From: an uncultured Ruminococcus sp.
Lineage (GTDB): Bacteria; Bacillota; Clostridia; Oscillospirales; CAG-272
DNA length: 64,000 nt
Reading direction: 5' to 3'
Assembly: GCA_905202255.1 (NCBI GenBank)
Contig: CAJKRH010000003.1
Coordinates: forward strand, 2,466-66,465
Shown here: positions 40,214-58,639 of the stretch, piece by piece
How positions within the stretch are numbered: the stretch's first letter is position 1
Layout: each line of letters opens with the position of its first letter
Position numbers and translations under genes: made by a program
The notes under the pieces: model-generated
Database searches by the model: none
The model's input: the letters and a program-made list of their open reading frames with translations, nothing else
What the model was told of the DNA's origin: nothing

Positions 40214-40273
40214 CGTTGGCGGAGAGGAAGGGATTCGAACCCTTGTGCGCTTTCGCGCAAACTGATTTCGAGT
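40214..40273 (-). pseudogene. orphan 3' portion of tRNA-Ser(CGA), from the 3' end to the anticodon loop; left att-like junction
   Basis: 60 nt identical to 58346-58405. Identity ends after TGATTTCGAGT. The next ~25 nt (GTCATCACTTCCCGATACCTTGCGG) resemble only a degenerate tRNA 5' part (CACTTC..GATACCT). Confidence 0.85.
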
Positions 40274-40598
40274 GTCATCACTTCCCGATACCTTGCGGTA
40301 TTTTATGAGAAGATAAGAGAACCTGAAATCCCCCGCCATAGACGAATTGACCGGGCATTTTGATTGCTTTTGCGAAAAATTACGAAAAAAGCTGATGTCG
40401 CGGTGTTTTTCGTCATCGACCAACTTCTAACAAAAATCTAACGGCTTTTTTAGAAATTTCATTAGAAGTCCGCGAAAAAAGCCTTTTTGAATTGCGATTT
40501 GGCAGTCCGCCGACTGTGTCTGCACGGAGTGATACAAAAGCAAAAATCATCTGTATCTCTGTGCATACAGTCCGAAGCTCGGACTGCTTTTTTGCGAA

Positions 40599-41798
40599 TT
40601 ACAGCTGCTCCGAAAGCAGAAAATCCGCCAGATGAACGATCCGGATACCGTTCTCAATTCCCGTGTCCATTTCGTTCAGCGTCACCACATATTTCGGATA
40701 ATGATCCTTGATCTCCATCAGATTCCCGACCTCGCGGTCGGAATTTTCCGGCAGCTGCACGCAGACCTGCACATACACCCGCTCGTCGCGGCGGTTGGCA
40801 ACAAAGTCGATCTCTTTCGTGTTGTTCTTCCCGATGAACACCTCATATCCACGCCGTTTCAGCTCCAGATAAACAATGTTCTCCAACACCCCGTCCAGCA
40901 TTTTTCTGTTGTATCCGAGCAGAGCGTATTTGAGGGACACATCCGAAAGGTAATATTTTTCCTGCGTTTTCAGAATGCTTTTCCCCTGCAGATCATACCG
41001 TTCGCACGGATAGATGATAAACGCCTGCTCCAGCCAGCGCAGATAGTTATAAATGCTCTCCACTGAAATCGTGCGATGCTCGCTTTTCAGAAAGGTCGAG
41101 ATGGAGTTTGCGGAAAAGGTCTTGCCCATGTTTTCCACGACAAATTTCACCACGCGGTCGAACAAGTCCTGCCGGTTGATACGATGGCGTTTGACAATAT
41201 CGCGCGACACCACCGTATGATAAATGCCGTCCACAATCTGATAGGCAGACTGTGCATCGTAGTTGCCGAGAGCAACAATCGGGAATCCGCCGAAGCGGAT
41301 ATATTCGTCCAATAACTCATTCCGTGACAGCTTACTGTCTGTCTTAAAATCAAGATATTCGCAGAATGACAAGGTATAGACCGGAATCAGAATATACCGC
41401 CCGGTCAGATAGGTGGAGATTTCGCTTGACATCAGCTTGGAATTGGAACCGGTCACATAAATATCGGCGCGCCCGCCCTCCAATAGACTATTGACCGCCT
41501 TCTCCCAGCCGGGAACCTCCTGAATCTCGTCAAGCAGCAGGTAATAACGCCCCTCGCCGGTCATTGCAAAAGTCAACTCGTCGTACATCTGCTTTGCCGT
41601 GATATTTTCGGGGACATCCATTTCGGTGTATTTTTTCAAAATGATGCGGTCGTCACCGACACCGCGCTGTTTAAGCTCTTCTCGGATCATCTCAAAAATC
41701 GTGGATTTCCCGCTGCGGCGCACTCCCGCAAGGATTTTCACAAGTGGCTGATCGATAAAAGGTCTTACCGCTTCCACATAATCGGGTCTGAATATCAT
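40599..41798 (-). CDS. AAA-family ATPase with DUF4143-like C-terminal domain
   Basis: The N-terminus ..KILAGVRRSGKSTIFEMI.. contains a Walker A. The 399-aa architecture is typical of ATP-binding proteins of the AAA_14/DUF4143 type. Confidence 0.8.
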   Translation of the reverse strand: MIFRPDYVEAVRPFIDQPLVKILAGVRRSGKSTIFEMIREELKQRGVGDDRIILKKYTEMDVPENITAKQMYDELTFAMTGEGRYYLLLDEIQEVPGWEKAVNSLLEGGRADIYVTGSNSKLMSSEISTYLTGRYILIPVYTLSFCEYLDFKTDSKLSRNELLDEYIRFGGFPIVALGNYDAQSAYQIVDGIYHTVVSRDIVKRHRINRQDLFDRVVKFVVENMGKTFSANSISTFLKSEHRTISVESIYNYLRWLEQAFIIYPCERYDLQGKSILKTQEKYYLSDVSLKYALLGYNRKMLDGVLENIVYLELKRRGYEVFIGKNNTKEIDFVANRRDERVYVQVCVQLPENSDREVGNLMEIKDHYPKYVVTLNEMDTGIENGIRIVHLADFLLSEQL

Positions 41799-41958
41799 AA
41801 AATCGCCCCCTTTCTTTTATAGTATACCATAAAAAATGAAAATAATCAAGTAGTTTTTCGGTTTTGACCTTAAAAACATATAGACATAAAGCACTTTATA
41901 AAATTCCCGATTTTTTTGCGGTTTGCCGCATTTATTTCTTGCAGGAGGTGTTTTGACC

Positions 41959-42051
41959 ATGAAAATCATGCGCTCGCAGTACTTGATTCAGCTTATCAAA
42001 AAGATGCACAACGGTCGTGTAAAAATCATCACGGGAATCCGCAGGCGTTGA
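41959..42051 (+). pseudogene. 30-codon N-terminal stub of a second AAA/DUF4143-type ATPase gene
   Basis: MKIMRSQYLIQLIKKMHNGRVKIITGIRRR-stop. It ends exactly where the Walker A (GKS) should follow, and GGAGG lies upstream. Confidence 0.6.
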
Positions 42052-42998
42052 AACCTATTTTTCGTATTTTGAAGATGCTTTCTTGCTACAAAATCCCTAC
42101 GGTAAAGAAAGTGTTTATCCCATCACCACCTGAAACAAATTAAATAACTAACGATAACGCCACACAGCCCCTTGATTCAAAAAGGATCAAGGGGCTGTTG
42201 TTATCTCGCCACACGCCCCAAATTCGGGCGCGTGACGGCTTTCTGATTTGCGTGCGGGAAAACGCTCCTCCGAGCCATTCAAAGCAGACACAGGCGATTC
42301 CAGCGGGCGTGCGAGGGGGATGCGGCACATAGTATGATTTCAATGTGTTGCGCCTCAGACTTGAATCGATTATCGGCAGTTATACAATGGATTTCACGAG
42401 TATTTTCAAGGGTCGATTTTCAAGCGGGAGAAAGGCAGTGCGTCAAACGCCCTGCCGGATTCACAGCGGACGGCAGAGCCGACCGCATTTTCTCGCGTTT
42501 TGACCGCATTTGCTCGTTTTTTTGCGCATATCGGTTAGAAGAAGGCAGTGTGTCAAGCACGCGTATAATCGCGGAATCGGTGTGTCAACCATACGCATGA
42601 TTCCGCAAAACAGGCGGATTTTTCGCTTGGTTGCGGGCGTTTCCCGTGTGTCAGGTATACACACAAAAAAATCAATATCTCTGCAACCAAGGGGGTAGTG
42701 TTTGTATCAGGTGAACCATGGGTGGGTTCACCATGAACCCCCAATGTAAACTATACAAGAGAAAGAATATATAGAAAAACAGAAAAAGAACAACAAAGAG
42801 AACGCCCGTTTCTCCGTTGCGCCGCGAATCGTTTCCTGAGTGCGCCGACGGGAATCGGCCGATCCGGTTTTCTTTTTCTGCTTTTTCTTTGTCCGAAAAA
42901 AGATTTCGTGAAAGATATTTTTTGATTCGATTATCAAAGCTAAGAGAGTGCCGACCGTTTTTCTGCAAAAAAGTTTGATAATTTTTTCGTCCAAACGC

Positions 42999-43230
42999 GA
43001 AAAAAGTGTGGAATATAGGGTGAGAGGAACTTTCCCTGAAAAAAAGTTTCCGCCGACAGGTTGTAAAATCTGAAAAAAGTGTGGAATACAGGGTGAGGAA
43101 GTTTTTTCAAAAAACTTTTCGCTCAAACCACAAAAAAGTGTGGAATACAGGGTGAGAGGACTTTCCCTGAAAAAAAGTTCCCACTGAAGGGCTATCAAAC
43201 CCGAAAAAAGTGTGGAATACAGGGTGAGGG
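42999..43230 (+). repeat. four iteron-like direct repeats (~28 nt) spaced 60-73 bp apart
   Basis: GAAAAAAGTGTGGAATA[T/C]AGGGTGAG(A)GG occurs at 42999, 43072, 43131 and 43203. Units 1 and 3 also share the following ACTTTCCCTGAAAAAAAGTT. Confidence 0.85.
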
Positions 43231-43675
43231 GAAAAATAATCCTCCGGGTTCATTGACAACCGAATAAAGGGATACCGAGGTAGCATCCCGCCTTGCCCGA
43301 AAGGGCGAGCCGCCGGGACCGGGCGCCATGACCTCACCTATCGGGTGAGCGAGCGATCAACCGTGTTGCCGGACCGACCGATAAACAGCATCGGCGGCAG
43401 GCGATGACAGAGGTGCGGAACAATGATACTTCTGCGAAAGCAGCCCGCGATTTGCATGCGGGATACGGGGGTTACGGGCTGGAACTCTTATGTCCGCGAC
43501 ACTGTATATGATCCTCGTTTCCGTGAAAATAGTCACGGAATAGATGCTGCGAGGTACTCGGTATCTCCCCTGTGGGCAACGGTCTGCGCCGTCTGACGAC
43601 TGCGCTCTCCGTTGCCCCATCGCCGGGGCTGATATAAATACGGCGATACAAAAAATAAGTTGGGAGGACAAAAGT

Positions 43676-43984
43676 ATGATCTCCGAAAAAAACAGAACAC
43701 GAAACCTGACCATCACCCTGCGCGTTACATCGTCGGAGCGAGAACTTTTCCTCCGCGGCGCAGAGAAAAGAAACATGACGCTGACGGATTTTCTCGTCAG
43801 TGCCGCGCTCTATAAACCAAGTCACGCCATCAAAGAATGCAAAGCCATTCTCAAAAAACTGAATGAAGTGCAGGCAGAATTGCTCCGAGCCGAGTCCGAC
43901 CATCCCGATTATGCGGATGTGCTGGCGGCGCAAAAGGAGCTGTATCAGTTGCTTTTTCTGCTTGCAAGAAAGGAAACGATATGA
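43676..43984 (+). CDS. MobC-like ribbon-helix-helix protein (relaxosome accessory / RHH family)
   Basis: Start ATG 43676 after GGGAGGA. RNLTITLRVTSSERELFLRGAEKRNMTLTDFLVSAAL is the RHH pattern seen in MobC-type proteins. Confidence 0.6.
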   Translation: MISEKNRTRNLTITLRVTSSERELFLRGAEKRNMTLTDFLVSAALYKPSHAIKECKAILKKLNEVQAELLRAESDHPDYADVLAAQKELYQLLFLLARKETI

Positions 43985-44283: not shown

Positions 44284-44310
44284 AACCAAAAGCACAAGGA
44301 GAAAAGCATC

Positions 44311-45513: not shown

Positions 45514-45546
45514 TCGTGGTGCCGATTTCTGATAGGGGGTGAGTGC

Positions 45547-46083: not shown

Positions 46084-46134
46084 AGAGCAAAGGAATGGTC
46101 TTGAGATGTTCTCAAGGTTGTTCCTTTGCTCTTT
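45583..46134 (+). repeat. ~555-bp direct repeat, copy B (HTH gene plus compound terminator hairpin)
   Basis: Pairs with 37095-37649. It ends with hairpin AGCAAAGGAA...TTCCTTTGCT, which encloses CTTGAG..CTCAAG. Confidence 0.85.
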
Positions 46135-46241
46135 GCCAGCAACTTGACAAAAACAAACCACTTACTAAACCTTGTGTCTTCAATTTCGAACATGAATTTC
46201 GCATTTGCAAAGTCAAATTTCGACATTATGCTTTCCACCAC

Positions 46242-46300: not shown

Positions 46301-46528
46301 ATGAGTGTGAGTTACAAAAAGCTGTGGAAGCTATTGATTGATAAGGACATGAAGAAAAAAGATCTCCAGTTGGCTACCGGTCTCAGTTCTTCAACCATTG
46401 CAAAAATGACAAAGAACGAATCGGTCAATACAGAAGTGCTTGTCAAAGTCTGCACGGCGCTCGGCTGCGATATAGGCGACATTATGGAAGTGATTCCGGA
46501 TATCAAATCTGACACGGAGAAACGCTAA
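46301..46528 (+). CDS. XRE-family HTH protein (controller-like, 75 aa)
   Basis: LLIDKDMKKKDLQLATGLSSSTIAKMTKNESVNTEVLVKVCTALGCDIGDIMEV is a Cro/C1-type HTH. Its stop overlaps the next start (TAATG). Confidence 0.8.
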   Translation: MSVSYKKLWKLLIDKDMKKKDLQLATGLSSSTIAKMTKNESVNTEVLVKVCTALGCDIGDIMEVIPDIKSDTEKR

Positions 46529-49500
46529 TGGAACTTATCGATAATATCAACAAAACATTGAAAGATGACCTGGCAGATTCGATACACAGCGGGAGTAAAA
46601 TATCCATTGCCGCAGCTTGCTTTTCGATATACGCCTTTCAAGCGTTAAAAGATCAACTTACACAAATAGATGAGCTGCGTTTTATTTTCACCTCCCCGAC
46701 ATTCATCGCCGAGAAAGCCAAAAAAGAACGCCGGGAGTTTTATATTCCTCGCCTTACGCGAGAAAGAAGCCTTTATGGAACGGAGTTTGAAATAAGGCTA
46801 CGCAATGAGTTGACTCAAAAAGCCATTGCTAAAGAATGTGCAGATTGGATCCGAGCGAAAGTTACTTTCAAATCCAACATCAGTGATAAATCCATCCAAG
46901 GGCAATTAGTGGTTGACGATGCAGGCTATACACCAATCAATGGCTTTACGACAGTTGAACTCGGCTGCGAAAAAGGAAACGCAATGAACACAACCATCGT
47001 AAAAGATGCTTCTCTTGCTAAAACGCTCTTGGCAGGATTTAATGATATTTGGTCTGACAGCAAATTGCTTCAAAATGTGACAGACGAAATTATCGATAGC
47101 ATCTCCACTGCTTACAACGAGAATTCACCCGAATTCATCTACTTTGTAACGCTCTATAATATCTTCAACGAATTCCTTGAAGATATTTCAGAAGATGTTT
47201 TGCCGAATGAAGCGACCGGATTTAAGGAAAGTAAAATCTGGGGAATGCTTTATAACTTCCAAAGGGATGCTGCATTGGCGATTATCAATAAACTTGAAAA
47301 GTTCAACGGATGCATCCTGGCAGACAGCGTGGGATTGGGCAAAACCTTCACCGCACTGGCGGTTATTAAGTACTACGAAAACCGCAACAAATCGGTTCTC
47401 GTCCTCTGCCCTAAAAAACTGGCGAACAACTGGAACACCTATAAGGATAACTATGTCAATAATCCAATCGCCGCTGACCGTCTTCGCTATGATGTGCTTT
47501 ATCATACTGACCTGTCGAGAAACCACGGTTCCTCCAATGGTTTAGACTTGGATCGCTTGAACTGGGGCAATTATGATCTGGTCGTAATCGATGAATCACA
47601 CAACTTCAGAAACGGCGGGAAATCCGGCGGCGATTCGGAAAAAGAAAACAGATATCTCCGACTTTTGAACAAAGTCATCAGAACAGGTGTAAAGACCAAG
47701 GTTTTAATGCTCTCGGCAACGCCGGTAAACAATCGTTTTAATGATTTGAAAAATCAGCTTGCGCTTGCTTATGAGGGTAATTCAAACCTGATCAACGAAA
47801 AACTGAACACCAAAAGCACAATTGAGGAAATATTCCGTCAGGCTCAGCGGGCGTTTAACACATGGAGCAAACAAGATCCTCGCAGCAGAACCACCGAAAG
47901 CCTCCTGAAAATGCTGGACTTCGATTTCTTTGAGGTACTGGATTCTGTTACGATTGCCCGTTCAAGAAAGCACATTGAAAAATACTATGATACCGCAGAT
48001 ATCGGTTCTTTTCCGGAAAGGCTTAAGCCAATTTCCTTGTATCCGCCACTGACAGATCTGCGCAGTGCGATCAACTATAACGAAATATTTGAGCAGCTGA
48101 TGCTTTTGAATCTTGCAATTTATACTCCATCCCACTACATTCTCGACAGCAAAAAAAGCAAATACGCTGATTTGTTTGACGATGAAAAGGTTAATGTGGG
48201 CTTTACACAGGCGAACCGAGAGCAAGGCATCAGGCGTTTGATGGCAATCAACCTGATGAAACGAATGGAAAGCTCCGTCGCATCGTTCAGACTCACATTG
48301 AGCCGGATTGACAATCTGCTGAAAACAACGATATCAACCATTGACAGCTTCAATCAGTATTCCGATACCAACGTCAATCTGGAAGACATCTCTCAGCTGA
48401 ACGATTTTGATCTTGATGACCAAAACGATGATGAACTCTTTTCTTTCGGGAAAAAGGTCAAAATCAATCTGAGCGATATGGACTATACATCATGGCGCAG
48501 AGATCTTGCAAAGGACAAAGAAACCATTGAACTTTTGACTGTCATGGTTGCTGATATTACACCGGAGCATGACAGCAAATTGCAGGAGCTTTTCAGAGTT
48601 CTCTCAAATAAGATTGAGCATCCCATCAATGACAATAATCGAAAGGTTATTATTTTCACCGCATTTTCTGATACCGCAGAGTACCTTTATGAGAATGTGA
48701 GCAGGTTTGTTCTCCAAAACTATCATTTGAACACCGCAATGGTAACAGGCTCGGTTGACGGCCGTTCAACCGTTCCTCGTCTGCACTGCGATATGAATAC
48801 CGTGCTGACTTGCTTCTCTCCGATCTCTAAAGATAAAGAACTGCTGATGCCCGGTGATACGACAGAAATAGATGTGCTGATTGCAACCGACTGTATTTCC
48901 GAAGGTCAGAACCTGCAGGATTGCGACTATCTCATCAATTACGATATTCACTGGAATCCCGTTCGCATCATTCAGCGGTTCGGGCGTATCGACCGTATCG
49001 GAAGCCGCAATAAAGTCATTCAGCTGGTAAACTTCTGGCCAAATGTTACACTTGACGAATATATAGACCTCAAGGCACGTGTTGAAACCCGTATGAAGAT
49101 CGTTGATATGACCGCAACCGGAGACGACAACATATTGCAAGAAGAAAAGTCCGATCTGGAATACAGGAAAGCACAATTGAAGCGCCTCCAGGAAGAAGTC
49201 GTTGATATCGAGGAAATGTCCTCCGGCATCTCCATCATGGATCTGGGCTTAAATGAATTCCGGCTCGACCTGCTGGAATATGTCAAAGCAAATCCCAATC
49301 TTGACAAAACACCGTTCGGACTTCACGCCGTAGCCGCTTCAAATGATGAATGCCCTCCGGGCGTTGTGTTCGTGCTGAAGAACCGATCAAACAGCATCAA
49401 TATCGACCACCAGAATCGGCTGCATCCGTTCTATATGGTGTATATTGCCGATGATGGCGAAGTTGTTTGCGACCACCTTTCGCCCAAAGCAATGCTGGAC

Positions 49501-49755
49501 AAGCTCCGCTATTTGTGCAAAGGTAAAGCCACGCCGATTCCGGAACTGTACCGTCGGTTCAATAAGGAAACGAAAGACGGACGCAATATGCAAGCAACCT
49601 CCGCATTGCTTGGAGATGCGATTGCATCCATTATCGAAACCAAAGAAGAAAGCGAGATTGATACATTCCTTGGCGGTGGTCAGATGAGCTTTTTGTCAAA
49701 CGAAATCAAGGGGCTGGATGATTTTGAACTGATCTGCTTCTTGGTCGTAAAATAA
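46528..49755 (+). CDS. SNF2-family helicase with ~230-aa N-terminal extension (possibly an inactivated PLD-like N-domain)
   Basis: Motif I ILADSVGLGKT, motif II VVIDESHNFRN, and C-terminal lobe ATDCISEGQNLQDCDYLINYDIHWNPVRIIQRFGRIDRIGS. I could not find an HxK..D motif in the N-terminal region. Confidence 0.85.
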   Translation: MELIDNINKTLKDDLADSIHSGSKISIAAACFSIYAFQALKDQLTQIDELRFIFTSPTFIAEKAKKERREFYIPRLTRERSLYGTEFEIRLRNELTQKAIAKECADWIRAKVTFKSNISDKSIQGQLVVDDAGYTPINGFTTVELGCEKGNAMNTTIVKDASLAKTLLAGFNDIWSDSKLLQNVTDEIIDSISTAYNENSPEFIYFVTLYNIFNEFLEDISEDVLPNEATGFKESKIWGMLYNFQRDAALAIINKLEKFNGCILADSVGLGKTFTALAVIKYYENRNKSVLVLCPKKLANNWNTYKDNYVNNPIAADRLRYDVLYHTDLSRNHGSSNGLDLDRLNWGNYDLVVIDESHNFRNGGKSGGDSEKENRYLRLLNKVIRTGVKTKVLMLSATPVNNRFNDLKNQLALAYEGNSNLINEKLNTKSTIEEIFRQAQRAFNTWSKQDPRSRTTESLLKMLDFDFFEVLDSVTIARSRKHIEKYYDTADIGSFPERLKPISLYPPLTDLRSAINYNEIFEQLMLLNLAIYTPSHYILDSKKSKYADLFDDEKVNVGFTQANREQGIRRLMAINLMKRMESSVASFRLTLSRIDNLLKTTISTIDSFNQYSDTNVNLEDISQLNDFDLDDQNDDELFSFGKKVKINLSDMDYTSWRRDLAKDKETIELLTVMVADITPEHDSKLQELFRVLSNKIEHPINDNNRKVIIFTAFSDTAEYLYENVSRFVLQNYHLNTAMVTGSVDGRSTVPRLHCDMNTVLTCFSPISKDKELLMPGDTTEIDVLIATDCISEGQNLQDCDYLINYDIHWNPVRIIQRFGRIDRIGSRNKVIQLVNFWPNVTLDEYIDLKARVETRMKIVDMTATGDDNILQEEKSDLEYRKAQLKRLQEEVVDIEEMSSGISIMDLGLNEFRLDLLEYVKANPNLDKTPFGLHAVAASNDECPPGVVFVLKNRSNSINIDHQNRLHPFYMVYIADDGEVVCDHLSPKAMLDKLRYLCKGKATPIPELYRRFNKETKDGRNMQATSALLGDAIASIIETKEESEIDTFLGGGQMSFLSNEIKGLDDFELICFLVVK

Positions 49756-49774
49756 AATCAAAGGAGGCATGGAT

Positions 49775-50380
49775 ATGCTTGGATTCCCACAGAAAACAGA
49801 ATTACGAAAACCACTACATAAAAAAGTGATTTTTGAAAAGCTTCAACTGAACACCTTACAGCAAGATCGTGTGGATGCAGACATTTCACGCCTCTATTTT
49901 GTCAATGAGATCTCGCCTTACAGCGTAGGGATTACAGATGGAGAAGCCGTCAAGGCGTTTTATGTGATCCTGGTCTGCCTCAAGCGGAAGGATTATGACG
50001 ATAAAACGATCTCGATGCTCTTTCGCTTGATCGACAACAAAATGATTCTCGTTCTGCAATATGAAACCGAAAGCCGGGTGGCGATCTTTCATGGGAAACT
50101 CATTCAAACGGATTGGAAGCCAACAGACGCATTTTCCTTCTCCCTGCAAGGGCTGAACCTTGATTCAGTATGGAACAACCTAATCATTCAAATCGGGGAT
50201 ATTCACCCTGAAAGCGGACGCTCCATTGAAGAACAGATTGCACTTGACGAACAACGAAAAAAGATAGAAAAGGAAATTGCGTCTCTCGAAAAAATGGCAC
50301 GAGCGGAAAAACAGCCGAAAAAGAAGTTTGAACTGGTGCAACGGATTAGAGCTTTAAAAGAAAATCAAAATTCACCATAA
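49775..50380 (+). CDS. DUF4391-like protein
   Basis: MLGFPQKTELRKPLHKKVIFEK... and ...SLQGLNLDSVWNNLIIQIGDI match my memory of DUF4391 proteins (LP..T...IPK..F; L.GLN.D.VY.N...QI), followed by a C-terminal coiled-coil tail. Start set at the second ATG, 7 nt after AAGGAGG. Confidence 0.6.
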   Translation: MLGFPQKTELRKPLHKKVIFEKLQLNTLQQDRVDADISRLYFVNEISPYSVGITDGEAVKAFYVILVCLKRKDYDDKTISMLFRLIDNKMILVLQYETESRVAIFHGKLIQTDWKPTDAFSFSLQGLNLDSVWNNLIIQIGDIHPESGRSIEEQIALDEQRKKIEKEIASLEKMARAEKQPKKKFELVQRIRALKENQNSP

Positions 50381-50393
50381 GGAGGTTGTCGTT

Positions 50394-50912
50394 ATGTTTC
50401 TATATAAATTGCTACTCACTCTAAACGCAACATCATGGATGGCGATCATATATGTAATAAAAGAAGGTTGGACAATTGGGAAAGTGCCAAATCATTTGTT
50501 TGGAATACTGCTTTTGATAATTCCGATCTTTCTGTCATGGATTTCGCTTATTATGACTCGTTTTTTAGGAATTGAATCTTTAGTTGGTAATTGCAAAGAG
50601 TTTAGCCTTGCAGATGGGGAGTTTCTACCGATATATTTGGGGTATTTCTTTGTTTCCGTGGGAGTTTCTGACCTCTTTACAATGGCAGTGGTATACCTCA
50701 TAGTATTTGTCTTTACCTTTTTATCACAAACACAATACTATAATCCCATATATCTGCTTTTTGGCTATCATTACTACCACGTCACGACTGAAAATGGTAC
50801 AAGTATTTTTATTATCAGAAAAGGTCCAGTTATTCGAAATTCCGCAGAGCTAAGATTCGATCATTTGCATCGTTTGAACAATACAACTTTTATTGAGAGG
50901 AAGACAAAATGA
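50394..50912 (+). CDS. small ~4-TM membrane protein (KwaA-like candidate)
   Basis: 172 aa with AAGGAGG 8 nt upstream. Hydrophobic segments lie at about residues 3-24, 34-57, 76-92 and 96-112, followed by a ~60-aa soluble tail. About 33% GC by hand count of the first 60 nt. Confidence 0.6.
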   Translation: MFLYKLLLTLNATSWMAIIYVIKEGWTIGKVPNHLFGILLLIIPIFLSWISLIMTRFLGIESLVGNCKEFSLADGEFLPIYLGYFFVSVGVSDLFTMAVVYLIVFVFTFLSQTQYYNPIYLLFGYHYYHVTTENGTSIFIIRKGPVIRNSAELRFDHLHRLNNTTFIERKTK

Positions 50913-51754
50913 GTAATATATGTGTAAAATTAAAGCAACGTGAAAACAGCAAGTATCGACTGATGCTTTCATCAGATGAAACTATCTTTCCGGTATTTGA
51001 TCCGGAAAGTGCTTCAACATCACCATACACTCCGGGAGCAACGCTTGAAGATGATGATTGGTTTTGCATTCAGAATGTTCGGGATACTGAATATAGCATA
51101 GATTTGCTTTCTGAAACCTTTACCACCGTAGACTTGGCTTTACTCACTCATGCAGAATTTGAAAGGATAGATTACCTGTTTGCATTTGATGATAGATTCA
51201 TCTTCTTTCAGAATATATCCAAGTCAAATTTGATTGCACAAAAAAGAATTTTCCGCTTTGGAGAAGAATTCAAATACAGAACCAACTGCTCGGAAATTGT
51301 TATCAGAGAAATTCCGGATGCAATTTATGATAAAACCACCGACAGCCTATATTTCCGTAAACTCGAATCTATCACCAGTATATTCAGGGGGATAGATATG
51401 CTTTATCGCGAAGCCACGCAAGAAGAAACAGATTCTTTTCTTGCAAATGATTTTATCAACTTAAAGGATGACTATTCCGGCAGCAAAGTAAAAACCGCCA
51501 ACAGAAAAAGGATTGCTCTTGCAGCAAAAACCCTGTCGGAGCTTGGAGAAACCGATCGAAAGAACATCTTTGCCTACATAGGCGAATACTGTCCCGAATT
51601 GAAAGTTTCAGAAAATGCTTTTGAAGTTGGTTCTGAAAATGAATTGAAAATGCTGCTGTATGGTATCGAGCAGAGGTTTTATACTACTCCGGTTGGTGGA
51701 GAGAAACGCCTTGCCAATTCGGTTATTACATTGAATCAAGGAGGACAAGCATAA
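50909..51754 (+). CDS. 281-aa soluble protein, DUF4868/KwaB-like candidate
   Basis: ATGA overlap with the 4-TM gene. The segment ..IREIPDAIYDKTTDSLYFRKLESITSIFRGIDMLYREATQEETDSFL.. resembles the DUF4868 core as I remember it. Not verified. Confidence 0.5.
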   Translation: MSNICVKLKQRENSKYRLMLSSDETIFPVFDPESASTSPYTPGATLEDDDWFCIQNVRDTEYSIDLLSETFTTVDLALLTHAEFERIDYLFAFDDRFIFFQNISKSNLIAQKRIFRFGEEFKYRTNCSEIVIREIPDAIYDKTTDSLYFRKLESITSIFRGIDMLYREATQEETDSFLANDFINLKDDYSGSKVKTANRKRIALAAKTLSELGETDRKNIFAYIGEYCPELKVSENAFEVGSENELKMLLYGIEQRFYTTPVGGEKRLANSVITLNQGGQA

Positions 51755-53736
51755 TGGATAAACTGAAAATGCAAACGGCGAACAAAGCCGATGAGAACTA
51801 CAGAAAGCTGGCGGAGATGTTCCCGAACGCCGTGACGGAGACGATTGACGAGAACGGCGAGGTTGTTCGTGCCATTGACAAGGATGTGCTGATGCAGGAA
51901 ATCAACACAAAGGTCGTTGACGGAAAAGAGGAACGCTATCAGTTCACCTGGCCGGACAAGAAGAAATCTGTCCTGCTGGCGAACGCTCCCATTTCCAAAA
52001 CGCTGCGTCCAGTTCGTGATGATGAAACAAAACCCACCGGTGCGGACAGTGAGGGAAAACCTTATTGTAGCACTGGCAGCGTGGACTTTGATACCACCGA
52101 AAACCTCTATATCGAGGGTGATAACCTTGAAGTGCTGAAGCTCCTGCAGGAAACCTATCTCGGCAAAATCAAGATGATTTACATAGACCCGCCGTACAAT
52201 ACGGGAAATGACTTTGTGTATGAGGATGATTTTGCCCAAAGCACTGATGAGTACCTTGCAAATAGCGGACAGTTTGACGAGTACGGCAACCGTATGGTGC
52301 AGAACACCGAGAGCAACGGTCGTTTCCATACGGACTGGCTTAATATGATGTACACCCGTTTGCGAATTGCTAAAGATTTGCTTGCAGATGATGGTGTTAT
52401 TTTCATATCGATTGATGATAACGAGATTGCTAATCTCAGCAAAATGTGCGATGAAATATTTGGTAGTGATAACGCCATAGCTGTGTTTCCAAGACTTGCG
52501 ACAAAGAGTGGTAAGACCCCTCTAACATTTATGGTGAGTCACGATTATGTTCTTTGCTATACGAAATCCAGGCATGATATTTTTGTCGGACAAGCATTTG
52601 AGGACGATAGTTATAAATACTCCGATGAATACGAGGCGGAAAGAGGAAGGTATAATCTCAAGCAACCTCTGGATTGTAATTCGATAAGTTACTCAGCTTC
52701 TCTTGACTATCCAATTACACATGAAGGAGTCACTTATTATCCGGGTAGTGATTATAACAAATATCTTGAGAGACAAAGCGGTAAACATCTACCCAAAGAT
52801 TACGCATGGCGATGGTCAAAAGAGTTGTTCGAGTTTGGCTTGAAAAACGGATGGATTGTTTTTCAAAACGGGCGAATCTATACAAAGGGGTATCTTAACG
52901 CTGCGATTGAAAAACAGCCGAACGGGTCTTATGCTGTCGTAAAGAGAGAAAAAACACGAAAAATGTCTACCATTGATTTTATATCAAACGATTATTCTAA
53001 CGACATTGCCAAGAAGCAACTTGCTTCTCATAAAATTTCTGCTCGATTTGATTTTCCAAAACCAGTGGATTTAATTAAGGCATTGTTGGCTACGCACTAT
53101 GATAAAGATGCTTTGGTTGTAGATTTTTTCAGCGGATCTGCTACTACCGCCGAAGCTGTTTTTAAGCAGAACATAACAGATGGTGGCAATCGAAGGTTTA
53201 TTCTTGTCCAGTTGCCCGAGGAAACACAAGATAGTACATACAAAAACATCTGTGAAATCGGCAAGGAACGCATCCGTCGTGCCGGTAAGAAAATCAAAGA
53301 AGAAGCGGGACTTACTGCACAAAACCTCGACATCGGTTTCCGTGTTCTGAAGTGCGATACCTCCAACATGAAAGATGTGTATTACAATCCCGACGATTAT
53401 GAAATCGGTATGTTCGATCAGCTGACTGACAACATAAAGGAAGACAGAACTCCCGAAGATTTGCTTTTCCAGGTTATGCTCGATCTTGGCGTTCTTCTGT
53501 CAAGCAAAATTGAGGAAACCACCATTGCCGGTAAGAAGGTGTTCAATGTGGAGGGTAACTACCTGATCGCCTGCTTTGATGACAATGTAACCGACGAAGT
53601 CATTACGGCAATTGCAAAACAAGAACCGTACTACTTTGTCATGCGCGATAGCTCCATGGCTTCCGACAGCGTGGCAACCAACTTCGATCAGATTTTCGCT
53701 ACCTATAGTCCGACCACGATAAGGAAGGTGCTATGA
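51754..53736 (+). CDS. type III-like N6-adenine DNA methyltransferase (Mod, beta-class, DPPY)
   Basis: Motif IV MIYIDPPYNTGNDFVY precedes motif I VVDFFSGSATTAEAV. This order, with a variable middle region, is typical of Mod subunits. Confidence 0.88.
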   Translation: MDKLKMQTANKADENYRKLAEMFPNAVTETIDENGEVVRAIDKDVLMQEINTKVVDGKEERYQFTWPDKKKSVLLANAPISKTLRPVRDDETKPTGADSEGKPYCSTGSVDFDTTENLYIEGDNLEVLKLLQETYLGKIKMIYIDPPYNTGNDFVYEDDFAQSTDEYLANSGQFDEYGNRMVQNTESNGRFHTDWLNMMYTRLRIAKDLLADDGVIFISIDDNEIANLSKMCDEIFGSDNAIAVFPRLATKSGKTPLTFMVSHDYVLCYTKSRHDIFVGQAFEDDSYKYSDEYEAERGRYNLKQPLDCNSISYSASLDYPITHEGVTYYPGSDYNKYLERQSGKHLPKDYAWRWSKELFEFGLKNGWIVFQNGRIYTKGYLNAAIEKQPNGSYAVVKREKTRKMSTIDFISNDYSNDIAKKQLASHKISARFDFPKPVDLIKALLATHYDKDALVVDFFSGSATTAEAVFKQNITDGGNRRFILVQLPEETQDSTYKNICEIGKERIRRAGKKIKEEAGLTAQNLDIGFRVLKCDTSNMKDVYYNPDDYEIGMFDQLTDNIKEDRTPEDLLFQVMLDLGVLLSSKIEETTIAGKKVFNVEGNYLIACFDDNVTDEVITAIAKQEPYYFVMRDSSMASDSVATNFDQIFATYSPTTIRKVL

Positions 53737-53737
53737 G

Positions 53738-55036
53738 TTGAAGCAAATAACAGAAATAACACGAAGAGATATCTTCGCTTTGTTTCAATATGGCATGGAT
53801 ATAGACGAATTGTGGGAAACCAAACGAGTACGCTATGGCTATTATGGCAACCTAAGCGAGATTGATTTTCTCAAACGGATTTATGACCTCAAAGAACTTC
53901 CGAGTTATGATAATCGTTTTGAAGATGCCGAGGGCGACATATGGCAGCACACGATAAATAACGACGATTATGAAAATGGTTGGATTTTTGAGGACGATAG
54001 ATTTGAACTCTTGAATGGCGACGATGAAGTTCTGCTGAAGTTCTTATGTGCTGTTTTTCATCCTGCGGTTAGGTATGAAAAAGGTTATTGGAAAGAAATT
54101 CTTGATGCAGTAAACGGACTGCTTCACAACGACGGCTATGAGCTTTATCCGGAAAGCAAAATATCCGGACGAGATGTGTATGGTTGGCGTAAATACGACC
54201 AGGAGGAAAGTTCTTTGTTTGTCCCTTTCTCACAAAGGCACGAAAAGGCAATAAAGGCAAAAGAGCTTAAACTCTCGTTGAGTATGAAAATCCGAAACCA
54301 AATTTACAAACTTATCGAAAGATACTCAACCGTATATCGTGAAACCGATGATACTGGATGGAACTATGATATTACTACGAGTGAATGTATCTTTAGAGAT
54401 ATTTCACAGTTCTATAAGCCGAAGTGCTTTGACGCAAGCAATAATTATGTTGAAACCTCGGATATGGAGCAATTTATTCTGCATAATTCACCATTCTGCG
54501 TTCTTGATGTGATTGAGTTGTGCGAAAAGTACAATGCCGAAAGTGATTATTCGTCTCAGATGAATACACTTTTTAAGTTAAATTCGGTTGGATACAGATT
54601 AGAACAAGGGAGAGTTGTAAGTACCTTCGAAGTCCCTATTGACAAAAAGGTTGTATCGGATATTTCCGAACAAGGTTTGAAGGAACTTATAGAAGAAGCA
54701 GATAACTATTATCGAGCAGGCAATAAACAGATTGCAGTAGAGAAAATATGGGATGCTTTTGAGAGACTGAAAACCTTTTATTCTCCGGCACTTAATAAGG
54801 CATCATCTGCGAACAAAATAATTGATGATATGAGTTCTTCAGACCCTCACTATAAGGCTATGTATGAAGACGAGTTCAAGGCACTAACGAACATTGGCAA
54901 TGGGTTCAGAATTCGCCATCACGAAACGACCAAGGTTGATATTACGGACAATCGACAATACGACTATTTTTACAAGCGTTGTCTTGCCTTGATTTCTGTC
55001 GCTATCCTATACTTGGAAGGAGGAAGTCACAAATGA
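53738..55036 (+). CDS. 432-aa AbiJ-like protein: conserved N-terminal module plus HEPN-like C-terminus (candidate)
   Basis: TTG start 8-10 nt after AAGGAAGGTG. The N-terminus reads ..FLKRIYDLKELPSYDNRFEDAEGDIWQHTINNDDYENGWIFEDDRFELLNGDDEVLLKFLCAVFHPAVR.. The C-terminus reads ..IWDAFERLKTFY...LTNIGNGFRIRHHETTK.. About 33% GC in the first 60 nt. Confidence 0.5.
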   Translation: MKQITEITRRDIFALFQYGMDIDELWETKRVRYGYYGNLSEIDFLKRIYDLKELPSYDNRFEDAEGDIWQHTINNDDYENGWIFEDDRFELLNGDDEVLLKFLCAVFHPAVRYEKGYWKEILDAVNGLLHNDGYELYPESKISGRDVYGWRKYDQEESSLFVPFSQRHEKAIKAKELKLSLSMKIRNQIYKLIERYSTVYRETDDTGWNYDITTSECIFRDISQFYKPKCFDASNNYVETSDMEQFILHNSPFCVLDVIELCEKYNAESDYSSQMNTLFKLNSVGYRLEQGRVVSTFEVPIDKKVVSDISEQGLKELIEEADNYYRAGNKQIAVEKIWDAFERLKTFYSPALNKASSANKIIDDMSSSDPHYKAMYEDEFKALTNIGNGFRIRHHETTKVDITDNRQYDYFYKRCLALISVAILYLEGGSHK

Positions 55037-58000
55037 AATTCAAATTCAAGATACAGGGGTACCAAACCGATGCGGTAGACGCAGTGGTGAAAGTATTTGG
55101 CGGACAACCGTTTCAGGAAAGAACAAATTTCCGTCGGGATGTCGGCAAACTGTCGGCTCCGCAGCAAATTGCTTTGGAAATCGATGAGGACGGCGAAGCG
55201 CTTAACAGCGAGGTCGGCTATAAAAACGCCGCCGTGGAACTTTCCGACGATCAACTGCTTCGCAATATCAATGAGATTCAGTCACAGAACAATATTAAAC
55301 TTTCTTCCGCTTTAACCAGCGGAAGCAACTGCGGAAGATGCAGTCTTGATATTGAAATGGAAACCGGCACGGGCAAAACCTATGTCTACATCAAGACGAT
55401 GTTTGAGCTGAACAAGCGGTATGGCTGGAGCAAGTTCATTGTGGTCGTACCGTCAATCGCAATCCGTGAAGGCGTCAAAAAGTCGTTTGAAATCACCGAA
55501 GATCACTTCATGGAGAACTACGGCAAGAAAGCAAGATACTTTATCTACAACAGCTCAAATCTGGAGCAGCTCGATACTTTTTCTTCAAGCTCCGGCATCA
55601 ATGTCATGATCATCAATACACAGGCATTTGCCGCTTCACTGAAAGAGGACGGTAAGAGCAAGGAGGCGAAGATAATTTTCTCTCCGCGCGATACCTTTGG
55701 CTCCCGCAAGCCGATTGATGTTATTGCAGCTAACCATCCGATTCTCATTATGGATGAGCCGCAGAAAATGGGCGGCGAAGTGACGCAGAATGCACTCAAG
55801 AACTTTCATCCGCTGTTCACGATCAACTATTCTGCAACGCATAAAACGCAGCACAATCTTGTCTATGTATTGGATGCGTTGGATGCTTTCAACAAACGCC
55901 TGGTCAAGAAGATTGAGGTCAAGGGCTTTGAGGTAAAGAATTTCAGAGGAACAGACCATTATCTCTACTTTGAGAGCATTATTCTTTCCCAAAAGAAGCC
56001 TCCTATGGCTCGGATCGAGCTTGAAATCGGCTACAACAAATCGGTCAACCGGGAAACCCGTGTTCTCGGTGTCGGCGACGATCTGTTCTACATTTCGCAG
56101 GAAATGGGGCAATACAAAGGCTATACCATTTCGGAAATTGATCCGATTCAGAATACCATAACCTTCACAAACGGTGTTGTTCTGAAAGCCGGCGAGATCG
56201 TAGGAGATATTTCAGAACGGGATATGCGCCGAATCCAGATCAGAGAAACCATTCTTTCACATTTTGAGAAAGAAGAAAAACTCTTTAATATGGGCATCAA
56301 GTGCCTCTCATTGTTTTTCATCGATGAAGTATCAAAATATCGCCAGTACGATGAAAACGGAGACGAGAAACTCGGCGAGTACGGACAGATGTTCGAGCAG
56401 GAGTATATCAGCGTCCTCAACGACTATGTAACCTTGCTCGATACGCCTTATCAACGGTATCTGAAATCGACTTGCTCCGATGTATCCGCCGTACATAAAG
56501 GCTACTTCAGCATCGATAAGAAGACCGGCAGAAGCATCGACAGCGAGTTGAAGCGCGGCAGTGAATTCTCAGATGATATTTCTGCCTACGATCTGATCCT
56601 CAAAAACAAGGAGCGTCTGCTGTCATTTGAAGAACCGACACGGTTTATTTTCTCTCATTCCGCATTGCGTGAAGGTTGGGATAATCCGAATGTATTTCAG
56701 ATCTGCACATTGAAGCATTCAGACAGTCAAACAGCAAAACGCCAAGAGGTCGGACGAGGGCTTCGCCTTTGCGTCAATCAAACCGGAAGTCGTATGGATT
56801 CCGAGACGCTCGGTTCTTCGGTGCAGGATGTAAATCTCTTGACGGTTGTGGCAAGCGAAAGCTACCGTGATTTTGTCGGAGCCTTACAGTCAGACATTAA
56901 GACGGTTCTTTATGACAGACCGACTACCGCAACAAGCGAGTATTTCAACGGCAAGTATGTGAAAGTCAACGATGTCCCGACCCTGATCGATAAAAACGCA
57001 GCAGATACAATTGAATTCTATCTCATCAGTAACGGCTATGTAAATATGCAGCGTAAGGTCACGGACAAGTACCGCATGGATGTGCAAATGGGAACAATCG
57101 CTCCGCTTCCGGCAGAACTTGAACCTATGAGCGGTGGGATTCATACATTGATTCAATCGGTATATGATGATACCGTCATTGATGATATGTTCACCGACGG
57201 ACATGAATCTGCCATTAAAGAAAATCCGCTGAATGATAACTGGGCAAAGAAGGAATTCCAAGCCCTTTGGAATCAGATCAACCACAAGTACGCATACACT
57301 GTATCTTTTGACAGCAATGAATTGATCGCCAAGGCAATCGCTCATATTGATGACAAATTATTCGTTTCCGAACTGCAATACACAACTTCTATCGGCAGAC
57401 AGAAAACAGAAATGAATGAGTATGAGGTCGACAGAGGTGAATCGTTCGGTTCTGTAAAAACGAGAACGCAGACTCTCAGGCACGCAGAAACCAGTCAGGT
57501 CAAGTATGACCTGATCGGTAAAATAGCCGGTGGGACGACTCTGACAAGAAAAACCGTGGCGGCAATTCTGAAAGGAATACGCCAGGACAAACTTTATATG
57601 TTCAGGAATAACCCGGAGGAATTCATTTCAAAGGTTATTCGGTTGATCAACGAGCAAAAGGCAACCATGATTGTGGAGCATATCTCCTATAACTCAATCG
57701 AAGGCGGATTTGACAGTGGTATTTTTACTGCGGATAAGAGCAAACAAGCCTTTGATAAAGCATTCAGAGCCGAAAAGGCGATTCAGGATTATGTTTTCAC
57801 AGATGGCTCCGCCGAGCAAAGCATCGAACGCAAATTCGCACAGGATCTCGATGCTGCCGCAGAAGTCTGCGTATATGCAAAACTGCCGAAGGGCTTCCAC
57901 ATTCCAACTCCTGTTGGCAATTACTCTCCCGACTGGGCGATTGCTTTCTATGAGGGGACAGTGAAGCACATATTCTTTGTTGCCGAAACAAAGGGAACGA

Positions 58001-58146
58001 TGGAAAGTCTGAATCTCCGTCCAATCGAGCAAGCCAAAATTTCTTGCGCAAAGAAACTGTTCAATGAGATGTCCAACAGCCAAGTTCGCTATCATGATGT
58101 GGATAGCTATCAGAGTCTGTTAGACATTATGAACTCAATGGTTTAA
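55033..58146 (+). CDS. type III restriction enzyme Res subunit (SF2 helicase plus C-terminal PD-(D/E)xK-like nuclease)
   Basis: Start ATG 55033 (MKFKFKIQGYQTDAV) after GGAAGGAGGAAG, with an ATGA overlap. Motifs METGTGKTY and ILIMDEPQKM, and a C-terminal ..YSPDWAIAF...IFFVAETKG. Confidence 0.88.
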   Translation: MKFKFKIQGYQTDAVDAVVKVFGGQPFQERTNFRRDVGKLSAPQQIALEIDEDGEALNSEVGYKNAAVELSDDQLLRNINEIQSQNNIKLSSALTSGSNCGRCSLDIEMETGTGKTYVYIKTMFELNKRYGWSKFIVVVPSIAIREGVKKSFEITEDHFMENYGKKARYFIYNSSNLEQLDTFSSSSGINVMIINTQAFAASLKEDGKSKEAKIIFSPRDTFGSRKPIDVIAANHPILIMDEPQKMGGEVTQNALKNFHPLFTINYSATHKTQHNLVYVLDALDAFNKRLVKKIEVKGFEVKNFRGTDHYLYFESIILSQKKPPMARIELEIGYNKSVNRETRVLGVGDDLFYISQEMGQYKGYTISEIDPIQNTITFTNGVVLKAGEIVGDISERDMRRIQIRETILSHFEKEEKLFNMGIKCLSLFFIDEVSKYRQYDENGDEKLGEYGQMFEQEYISVLNDYVTLLDTPYQRYLKSTCSDVSAVHKGYFSIDKKTGRSIDSELKRGSEFSDDISAYDLILKNKERLLSFEEPTRFIFSHSALREGWDNPNVFQICTLKHSDSQTAKRQEVGRGLRLCVNQTGSRMDSETLGSSVQDVNLLTVVASESYRDFVGALQSDIKTVLYDRPTTATSEYFNGKYVKVNDVPTLIDKNAADTIEFYLISNGYVNMQRKVTDKYRMDVQMGTIAPLPAELEPMSGGIHTLIQSVYDDTVIDDMFTDGHESAIKENPLNDNWAKKEFQALWNQINHKYAYTVSFDSNELIAKAIAHIDDKLFVSELQYTTSIGRQKTEMNEYEVDRGESFGSVKTRTQTLRHAETSQVKYDLIGKIAGGTTLTRKTVAAILKGIRQDKLYMFRNNPEEFISKVIRLINEQKATMIVEHISYNSIEGGFDSGIFTADKSKQAFDKAFRAEKAIQDYVFTDGSAEQSIERKFAQDLDAAAEVCVYAKLPKGFHIPTPVGNYSPDWAIAFYEGTVKHIFFVAETKGTMESLNLRPIEQAKISCAKKLFNEMSNSQVRYHDVDSYQSLLDIMNSMV

Positions 58147-58163
58147 TTCAATAGCAACTCAAA

Positions 58164-58199
58164 AACCGCCTGCGATTCAATCACGAACCGTAGGCGGTT
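58164..58199 (+). terminator. hairpin downstream of res (weak terminator)
   Basis: AACCGCCTGCG...CGTAGGCGGTT, an 11-bp stem with one G-U pair and a 14-nt loop. The T-tail is poor. Confidence 0.4.
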
Positions 58200-58314
58200 A
58201 TCTTCGCTCAACTATTGTTAAAGAAAGCGGAGAGATCATTTTATCTCTGCGTTATTTCTTTGAAGTTTTGATGCTCCATCGGCATCACTGTCAACTCGTT
58301 CGTATCCTATCGGT

Positions 58315-58344
58315 AAAAACAAAAAGGACACCTTTCGGTGTCCT
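58315..58344 (-). terminator. intrinsic terminator of the intact tRNA-Ser
   Basis: AGGACACC-TTTC-GGTGTCCT, followed on the minus strand by TTTTTGTTTTT. Confidence 0.8.
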
Positions 58345-58348
58345 GCGT

Positions 58349-58437
58349 TGGCGGAGAGGAAGGGATTCGAACCCTTGTGCGCTTTCGCGCAAACTGATTT
58401 CGAGTCAGCCCCGTTATGACCACTTCGATACCTCTCC
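58349..58437 (-). tRNA. tRNA-Ser (anticodon CGA), class II with long variable arm, CCA encoded
   Basis: The minus strand reads GGAGAGGTATCGAAGTGGTCATAACGGGGCTGACTCGAAATCAGTTTGCGCGAAAGCGCACAAGGGTTCGAATCCCTTCCTCTCCGCCA. It has a 7-bp acceptor stem GGAGAGG/CCTCTCC, anticodon loop CTCGAAA, T-loop GGTTCGAATCC and a hairpin variable arm. Confidence 0.92.
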
Positions 58438-58596
58438 ATATATGTTCACCCTCAAAAACAAGGGAAACAATCATTATTCAATTTTTTAGAAAACCCGTTA
58501 GATAAGTCGGTCAGAAAAATCATCAACCGAGCGAAAACCCAACAAAATCAAGGCTTTCCGGCGGTTTTCAGTGGCACAACTACTCAAATGTGTACA

Positions 58597-58639
58597 TGAT
58601 TTCGAGTCAGCCCCGTTATGACCACTTCGATACCTCTCC
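58597..58639 (-). repeat. orphan 5' portion of tRNA-Ser, from the 5' end to the anticodon loop; right att-like junction
   Basis: 43 nt identical to 58395-58437. Identity begins at TGATTTCGAGT. It lies about 50 nt downstream (minus strand) of a consensus promoter. Confidence 0.85.

Follow-up and report, generated by a model that had tools for sequence, protein, structure and literature searches.

The window analysed here is a stretch of 64,000 nucleotides (64 kb) from an uncultured Ruminococcus sp. (contig CAJKRH010000003.1). It holds two separated parts of a tRNA-Ser(CGA) gene, and the 18,323 bp between their crossover cores (40274-58596), referred to below as the island, encode a tyrosine integrase (Int), a set of backbone proteins, and a block of defence systems, together with an intact tRNA-Ser(CGA) gene close to the right end (Table 1). 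This intact gene, located on the minus strand, is the sole tRNA called by ARAGORN in the window, with an Rfam score of 54 bits against a gathering score of 29.

The split of the gene is apparent from repeats within the window. The orphan 3' portion (40214-40273) matches 58346-58405 over 60 nt with 100% identity, and on the other side 58597-58645 matches 58395-58443 over 49 nt with 98%, the single mismatch lying just upstream of the 5' end of the tRNA; the 43 nt of the orphan 5' portion (58597-58639) are identical to 58395-58437. Exact repeats of 60 and 43 nt in 64 kb are far beyond chance. Both portions end in an 11-nt core, TGATTTCGAGT, which is present in the window without mismatch only at 40263, 58395, and 58597. 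In the tRNA sense, the core reads ACTCGAAATCA and covers nucleotides 33-43: the anticodon loop of 7 nt, one stem nucleotide 5' of it, and three nucleotides 3' of it. When the 5' and the 3' portions are joined via the core, they reproduce the internal gene in 92 of 92 nt, including the CCA and three further nucleotides. With an overlap of just about 11 nt, the tRNA is restored at neither end: ARAGORN calls none at the left or the right junction, and the island sequence past the core is only loosely tRNA-like at the left and unrelated at the right. The distal boundary of the island is marked by the displaced 3' fragment, which has equivalents in three related contigs (L090, L112, and L113), and the promoter-proximal boundary is the dead 43-nt fragment, the intact gene being placed 159 nt further in and forming no boundary.

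A preliminary description of this DNA had proposed that the two portions reconstruct the intact copy through a shared 11-nt stretch, that the crossover falls in the anticodon loop, and that neither junction regenerates the tRNA, a complete copy lying instead inside the right end, and all of this was borne out. The right-hand arrangement is base-identical across contigs of seven independent samples, and it is therefore not an assembly artefact of the window. Short-read contigs of the host end at the orphan 5' portion. Samples carrying the island include those behind ERZ28575196, ERZ964349, and SRR35866353.

The orphan 5' portion is preceded by a host tRNA promoter of the form TTGACA-17-TATAAT with a TG extension (58718 to 58690 on the minus strand, 12 of 12 matches), the only promoter-like site within 58100-58800. 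Its -10 element ends 51 nt ahead of the fragment, in keeping with the distance of about 50 nt given previously, and the leader (58640-58690) contains an inverted repeat, AAACCGATTTTATG...CATAAATCGGTTT, which overlaps the promoter spacer. The intact gene is co-oriented with the host fragment and lies 202 nt downstream of the start of that fragment. No promoter-like or terminator-like site was found in the 159-nt spacer between the two (58438-58596), and nothing like a terminator separates the host promoter from the island tRNA. The two terminators differ, as had already been noticed: a 15-bp stem follows the orphan 3' portion (40214-40180), and an 8-bp stem follows the intact copy (58344-58325).

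The sequence ATCTAACGG occurs only twice in the 64-kb window, at 40436 and 58495, in inverted orientation and at 163 and 96 nt from the sides of the core in the proposed attachment site of the element (attP). This pair weakly suggests that the spacer and the island left end are the arms of one attP. A longer arm motif, ACTTNTCTAACGG, was rejected, since with two mismatches permitted it did no better than chance, only the exact 9-mer pair being notable.

Table 1. Features of the island and of its junctions, with positions in the window.
Feature	Position	Strand	Evidence or remarks
Terminator hairpin downstream of orphan 3' portion	40180..40214	-	15-bp stem and T-rich tail
Orphan 3' portion of tRNA-Ser(CGA), attL-side junction	40214..40273	-	100% over 60 nt to 58346-58405; core 40263-40273
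Island left end, proposed attP P' arm	40274..40598	.	ATCTAACGG at 40436-40444, TTTTTTAGAAA at 40446; 96-99% identical in every context
AAA_14/DUF4143 ATPase, conserved backbone	40599..41798	-	Pfam E = 2e-28; PADLOC candidate PDC-S01, E = 2.5e-148
Four iteron-like direct repeats GAAAAAAGTGTGGAATAYAGGGTGAGRGG	42984..43250	+	Repeat families D1, D2
dinG RNA motif RF03082, upstream of nikA-like gene	43422..43507	+	63.1 bits vs gathering score 46.9
NikA-like/MobA-like ribbon-helix-helix mobilisation accessory protein	43676..43984	+	Pfam NikA-like 28.1 bits vs cut-off 27; NCBIfam MobA weak
Excisionase-family HTH_17 protein, 100 aa	43981..44283	+	Pfam E = 7.8e-15; TIGR01764 48.8 bits vs 28.8; PHROGs excisionase families
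Tyrosine integrase, 400 aa	44311..45513	+	Pfam Phage_integrase E = 2.9e-27 and SAM-like N-terminal domains
Backbone regulator, HTH_17 protein, 178 aa	45547-46083	+	
Backbone regulator, HTH_26 Cro/CI-type protein, 75 aa	46301-46528	+	
Defence cargo, whole	46528..58146	+	Pfam, PADLOC
SNF2 helicase	46528-49755	+	Pfam; PADLOC HKD+Snf2
DUF4391 protein	49769-50380	+	Pfam
KwaA-like (Kiwa)	50394-50912	+	PADLOC KwaA
KwaB-like (Kiwa)	50909-51754	+	PADLOC KwaB
Type III methyltransferase	51754-53736	+	PADLOC MTase_III E = 2.8e-204
AbiJ	53738-55036	+	Pfam
Type III restriction enzyme (Res)	55033-58146	+	PADLOC REase_III E = 3.3e-290
Terminator of island-borne tRNA	58325..58344	-	8-bp stem then TTTTTGTTTTT
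Intact island-borne tRNA-Ser(CGA), CCA encoded	58349..58437	-	ARAGORN; Rfam 54 bits
159-nt spacer, proposed attP P arm and island-tRNA leader	58438..58596	-	ATCTAACGG at 58495-58503 (minus strand); 95% identical in L108
Orphan 5' portion of host tRNA-Ser(CGA), attR-side junction	58597..58639	-	Identical to 58395-58437; core 58597-58607
Host tRNA promoter TTGACA-17-TG-TATAAT	58690..58718	-	12/12 matches

Recurrence of the island ends in other contigs

The left end of the island, gtcatc(a/g)cttcccgatacc..., follows the core and the tRNA 3' part in four flanks. Besides that of the window type, these are a Rep/serine-recombinase element (L090), a region with sigK and glycosyltransferase genes, which holds a T-loop variant (L112), and, in a 92% relative of the host, a DUF1003 gene with the gene of an 879-aa rhamnosidase (L113). 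This end is 96-99% identical across contexts and always starts directly after the core. The right end (...tgtaca) adjoins the host 5' fragment not only in the window but also in L108, which was the only metagenome match to the right-junction pattern in one scan and whose upstream flank is unlike that of the window. The island ends therefore at the tRNA core, where the preliminary description had set its limits.

L108 is informative about the origin of the intact gene. It holds the same 43-nt 5' fragment up to the core and then the spacer, 95% identical over 159 nt, behind which lies an intact tRNA-Ser(CGA) that is 82% identical to the host-type gene. The acceptor stem (GGAAGCG/CGCTTCC) and the anticodon stem of this tRNA pair with themselves and do not match the adjacent fragment. 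Its int gene is 95% identical in DNA to that of the island, and the island itself is decayed, with Int and a truncated HTH_17 gene kept and the left part gone. A further case, a diverged element of the same layout, is that of L053, a GTDB species representative in which the locus adjoins rnpB and whose upstream host DNA is homologous to that of L108; here a 40-nt 5' fragment ending in ...ACTCGAAA is followed by an unrelated 158-nt spacer and by a third kind of intact tRNA-Ser(CGA). Since between L108 and L053 the fragment is constant while the spacer and the tRNA vary at one locus, these last two are the inserted part, and since in L108 the spacer is 95% identical yet the tRNA only 82%, with its own matching stems, the tRNA travels with the element. 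Both comparisons argue that spacer and tRNA belong to the element. A chimera of the host 5' part and the element 3' part in L108 would have two mismatches and one wobble in the acceptor stem and one mismatch in the anticodon stem, a count, like the argument built on it, that comes from reading the sequences; ARAGORN is too lenient for this purpose and still calls the chimeric tRNAs.

Upstream of the 5' fragment, both L108 (1-190) and L053 (375-523, minus strand) also contain a relic composed of tRNA nucleotides 1-18, an insert of about 125 nt, and tRNA nucleotides 20-30. The insert is about 80% alike between the two hosts and matched no Rfam family. The relic may correspond to an older round of tRNA replacement or to a small inserted element.

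Two other contigs present different joins at the island tRNA. In L115, the island left end runs via the core into the island tRNA, of which the 3' half (GTTTGCGCG...CGCAGGACACC) is present, followed by the island terminator and Res. This junction region (1611-2169) belongs to a single k-mer-graph contig that crosses a 60-nt repeat, and it could come from a second copy inserted in tandem into the tRNA that the island carries, from an alternative recombination or excision event, or from a mis-join over the repeat. L139 (5825-6921) contains the same Res and terminator, only the last 33 nt of the tRNA (with two variants), and then unrelated DNA with TTTTTAGAAAT repeats, which suggests that another element type may recombine in the T-arm of the island-borne tRNA.

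The DNA to the left of the island in the window differs from that of the 92% relative, in which 12 kb (28087-40213) are absent and the island abuts the DUF1003 gene and the rhamnosidase. Part of this segment has a G+C content of 33-36%, and an ABC transporter/MarR block is present. The segment also contains, at 38461-38482, a third tRNA-Ser 3'-end fragment of 22 nt (T-loop to 3' end), fused in frame to a C-terminal piece of another tyrosine integrase (38494-38697, 41% identical to the island Int), and, 1 kb further left (37083-37598), an 83.5% identical paralogue of the 178-aa HTH_17 protein of the island. Judged by these sequences, the segment looks like older mobile elements accreted at the same tRNA. 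In L112 (2765-2912), a second tRNA 3'-end fragment of 21 nt with its own terminator is located about 110 nt beyond the first displaced 3' part; it mirrors the 22-nt fragment of the window and suggests that the host of L112, too, had received a T-loop-type insertion before. Given the accreted mobile DNA in the window, the hairpin at 40181 need not be the original host terminator. The preliminary description had envisaged an empty site made of the promoter, a single tRNA, and this hairpin; the last part of that layout is uncertain.

Genes and defence cargo of the island

The island has its own integration and excision module, formed by Int and the excisionase-family protein (Table 1). Its int, xis, and nikA genes are intact open reading frames (ORFs), and both att cores are perfect. 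An identical Int is found in 50 collection blocks with the same backbone and varying cargo (DISARM-like, TIR, SieB, and other restriction-modification (R-M) sets), and the 90% cluster of this Int has 1047 member sequences. The exact AAA_14 protein is present in 25 collection blocks, and the nikA-like gene is called in all related contigs.

Pfam and NCBIfam searches of the island proteins found no relaxase, no replication gene, and no type IV secretion system genes, and with Pfam and PHROGs no capsid, tail, terminase, or lysis genes were found. The profile searches agree here with the preliminary description, which had reported int, xis-like, and mobC-like genes and neither a relaxase nor a replication gene. 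To judge by its gene content, the island is a relaxase-less member of a lineage resembling integrative and mobilisable elements (IMEs) that shuttles defence systems.

In the defence cargo, PADLOC additionally matches PDC-S32. The succession of SNF2, DUF4391, a variable insert, the type III methyltransferase, and Res likewise forms the cargo of a different IME type (L133, L134, and L136), with Res 91-95% identical; that type encodes a Peptidase_S24 protein, a NikA-like protein, a PF03432 relaxase, and a 404-aa Int. Two slots of the cargo are variable, namely the insert between DUF4391 and the methyltransferase (Kiwa, TIR, or DUF2971) and the gene before Res (AbiJ, Abi_C, or a 341-aa protein). 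The defence cargo looks like a modular cassette that is swapped between element families.

The region between the ATPase gene and nikA contains two further features. The iteron-like repeats GAAAAAAGTGTGGAATAYAGGGTGAGRGG, spaced about 60-72 nt, follow the ATPase gene and precede the dinG motif, which itself is found about 170 nt upstream of the nikA-like gene. The motif occupies the same place in the L090, L094, and L095 islands and is absent in two other IME types examined. The dinG motif could be a structure related to the origin of transfer (oriT) or a regulatory structure of the island backbone; as an oriT, the motif, like the repeats ahead of nikA, is no more than a candidate. Several short-read contigs of related islands stop between the ATPase gene and nikA.

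Predicted replacement mechanism and competing explanations

The anatomy of the junctions, the recurrence of the ends in different flanks, the spacer and tRNA carried by the element, and the gene content make it quite probable that 40274-58596 is an integrative, probably mobilisable non-phage defence island which replaces the tRNA-Ser(CGA) that it splits with its own complete copy. In the mechanism proposed, the island tyrosine integrase would recombine the attP core, TGATTTCGAGT, with the host tRNA-Ser(CGA) gene at its anticodon loop. The predicted attP junction is CAAATGTGTACA-TGATTTCGAGT-GTCATCACTTCC (in its wider form, ...CTCAAATGTGTACA TGATTTCGAGT GTCATCACTTCCCGATACC...), and the repaired host site (attB) would consist of the leader on the side of 58640, a single intact tRNA, and then CGGAACCCTTGAAAAC.... 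The host 5' portion would stay at the right, behind its promoter, and the host-side 3' portion at the left with a terminator. The element would compensate for this with its own tRNA-Ser(CGA), placed just beyond the proposed P arm in the orientation of the host gene. Mobilisation would take place in trans, by a relaxase encoded elsewhere.

Since the island tRNA is without a consensus promoter and is co-oriented 202 nt downstream with no intervening terminator, it is probably read through from the host tRNA promoter, which the element would thereby capture. The transcript would contain the orphan fragment, the spacer, and the tRNA. In front of the tRNA it would have a leader of about 245 nt, made up of some 44 nt ahead of the fragment, the fragment itself (43 nt), and the spacer (159 nt). 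Maturation by RNase P and at the 3' end would then yield a tRNA able to complement the lost function. Replacement of the host gene is thus the predicted role of the island tRNA. A whole tRNA would let the element use tRNA-Ser(CGA) genes with differing stems, where a host/element chimera would mismatch, and the mismatched stems that the L108 and L053 chimeras would have provide a rationale for carrying the whole gene. The island tRNA itself would be a fresh attB inside the island, favouring tandem accretion.

Several observations weigh against this interpretation. The island tRNA of the window is identical to both host fragments and would also fit a regenerated host gene, and the L115 junction resembles a classical attP carrying the tRNA 3' part. 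Int is not beside an att site, its distances to the two ends being 4 kb and 13 kb. In addition, tRNA-Ser(CGA) may be dispensable if the UGA isoacceptor reads UCG. No empty attB was found in the same or closely related species, every contig of the species carries the island, which may be fixed here, and no attP circle was found in viral contigs, a metagenome scan, or plasmids.

These last points come from searches by several routes. Exact-protein look-ups with the radical SAM protein of the right flank, the far-left rhamnosidase, Res, and a 67-aa ORF over the tRNA returned only island-bearing contigs of the same species. In one scan of genome contigs, the relatives of the radical SAM protein were at most 77% identical and non-syntenic, and none had a tRNA-Ser(CGA) downstream of that gene; the best relatives of the flanking genes (70-77% identity) are in metagenome-assembled genomes labelled Ruminococcaceae, Clostridia, and Acutalibacteraceae. 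For the host of L112, the only contig with an identical SigK ends within the distal tRNA fragment, short of the island junction, and a relative with 83% SigK identity is not syntenic. The exact left- and right-junction patterns matched nothing in viral contigs, the reconstructed attP matched only tRNA genes in plasmids, and the island Int had at most 36% identity to plasmid proteins and no match in viral contigs. Res homologues, used as a route to other right junctions, led from P0130 and P0127 to the different IME type with shared cargo, in which no tRNA module was seen, and from P0121 to contigs ending in the tRNA and to L139. Of the checks suggested in the preliminary description, the comparison with relatives without the insert gave only island-bearing contigs of the same species and non-syntenic relatives, and the search for an excised circle or a repaired attB gave none in these contigs and plasmids.

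The main alternative, which is unlikely, is a classical island that regenerates its target tRNA and lies next to an older scar. According to this explanation, the mobile unit would be 40274-58405, with an attP carrying the core, the tRNA 3' half, and the terminator; 58349-58437 would be the regenerated target, and 58438-58639 the leftover of an earlier unrelated insertion that brought a whole tRNA. L115, with its left end, core, 3' half, island terminator, and Res, has the expected composition, and the identity of the internal tRNA to both fragments is also accounted for. The locus has received several insertions (the fragment at 38461-38482 fused to an integrase piece, and the 12 kb extra with respect to L113), and L139 indicates that other elements recombine inside the T-arm of the same tRNA. 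However, L115 could equally be a tandem copy in the island's own tRNA or a mis-join, and an earlier element that carried a complete tRNA at 159 nt from this very core of 11 nt would still be required, so that the mechanism is only moved back one step. L108 and L053 are fitted less simply: in L108, where the upstream flank is a different one, the spacer and this Int type are accompanied by a tRNA that differs in its 5' half from the adjacent fragment. The inverted ATCTAACGG pair, for its part, tends to tie the spacer to the island left end.

Replacement of the tRNA by the island may also have occurred as proposed, with the island now being an immobile, fixed relic that is kept as the only functional tRNA-Ser(CGA) at the locus. 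This variant, which retains the architecture given in the preliminary description, is highly improbable. It would explain that all contigs with identical flanking radical-SAM or rhamnosidase proteins carry the island, and L108 shows that an island can decay in place with the tRNA retained; nevertheless, the integration, excision, and nikA genes are intact and the cores perfect, and identical Int and AAA_14 proteins with 96-99% identical ends in several unrelated flanks point to recent movement of the lineage. We infer that the island is active in this genome. A local tandem duplication or an assembly artefact as the source of the partial tRNA copies is effectively excluded, since, even if the 5' fragment and the intact gene are direct repeats 202 nt apart, the 11-nt core is the exact end point of both partial copies, the seven independent samples agree base for base in the arrangement, and the spacer recurs behind a different upstream flank. 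A third att copy near int, the sign of two tandem elements, was also considered and rejected, no further core-like sequence being found inside the island even at one mismatch.

A broader extension of the replacement mechanism is put forward tentatively, its chances being judged slightly less than even. Relaxase-less mobilisable defence islands of this kind would be widespread in gut Clostridia, using only the near-invariant anticodon loop of tRNA-Ser(CGA) as attB, killing the resident gene, and placing their own copy under the captured host promoter, which would free their host range from stem compatibility. Over time, serial swaps for foreign genes would take place, relic 5' and 3' fragments would pile up on both sides, and the islands would offer new attB sites from which arrays could grow.

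If replacement by the island is correct, it would extend a tRNA-dependent strategy that was experimentally shown only for actinobacteriophages (2024) to non-phage defence islands of abundant human-gut Firmicutes, and would add a compact design in which the core, a 159-nt arm, and a promoter-less tRNA are positioned for the host promoter. It would explain how one integrase lineage (the 1047-member cluster, with its 50 blocks) enters hosts with differing tRNA-Ser(CGA), and it would suggest a role of mobile elements in the turnover of host tRNA genes and in the nucleation of island arrays. Island finders that expect a regenerated boundary tRNA would misplace the ends of such islands, and the int-attP-tRNA cassette would be a possible integration tool for poorly tractable gut Clostridia.

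Comparison with known systems

A match in gene order is found among IMEs of Firmicutes. The nearest relatives found (L125-L132, with about 61% Int identity) share the order of a NikA/MobC-like gene, xis (HTH_17), int, a gene for a 178-179-aa HTH_17 protein, and R-M/defence cargo. These elements encode a PF03432 relaxase and an AAA_25 protein and have no tRNA within 10 kb of int, whereas in the island a relaxase is missing and an AAA_14 ATPase, a dinG motif, and the tRNA-replacement att module are present.

Classical islands that use the anticodon-loop sublocation (Williams 2002; Islander, PMC4383910) resemble the island in the tyrosine integrase, the crossover in the anticodon loop, and the displaced 3' fragment at the far end. 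In such islands, the 3' portion of the tRNA is placed directly at attP and the target is regenerated, while the island has a dead 5' fragment with a complete gene further in. An intact tRNA rebuilt at the boundary from the host 5' part and the island 3' part, as expected of a classical island, is not what was found, and in L108 the 5' half of the tRNA differs from the fragment.

The functional parallel is tRNA-dependent lysogeny, described for actinobacteriophages including Fionnbharth (K4), those of cluster L, Gaia, and others (Guerrero-Bustamante and Hatfull, mBio 2024, PMC10865867). In these phages, the 8-17-bp cores fall within tRNA genes that integration does not restore, and viable lysogens depend on a phage-borne tRNA of the same isotype (PMC10865867). 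The same paper mentions prophage Lj965 of Lactobacillus johnsonii, and similar phage-related sequences are known in Sinorhizobium meliloti (PMC11476347). The island shares with this family the tyrosine integrase, an attB within a host tRNA gene (with a core of 11 nt here, against 8-17 bp), junctions none of which rebuilds the tRNA, an element tRNA with the same anticodon that could stand in for the lost one, and putative arm-type sites flanking the core. In contrast to the actinobacteriophages, it is a non-phage, relaxase-less island of Acutalibacteraceae-like gut Clostridia with a NikA-like gene and anti-phage cargo; given the lack of phage genes and the presence of int, xis, nikA, and defence systems, it would function like the tRNA-dependent family and yet is no prophage. 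Fionnbharth has its tRNA elsewhere in the phage genome, where it overlaps a protein gene of the other strand and is served by a demonstrated promoter of its own (PMC10865867); the island tRNA, by contrast, is placed at 159 nt from the core in the orientation of the host tRNA promoter and lacks a recognisable promoter of its own. The requirement for the tRNA has been shown experimentally for Fionnbharth (PMC10865867), and for the island it is predicted from sequence.

In the literature searched, whose coverage is incomplete, no description of tRNA replacement was found for integrative and conjugative elements, IMEs, or defence islands. The arrangement had been called unusual in the preliminary description, but tRNA-dependent lysogeny (PMC10865867) means that it is not unprecedented. 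The principle is thus already known from phages, and what is new so far, within that literature, is its probable use by a non-phage defence island.

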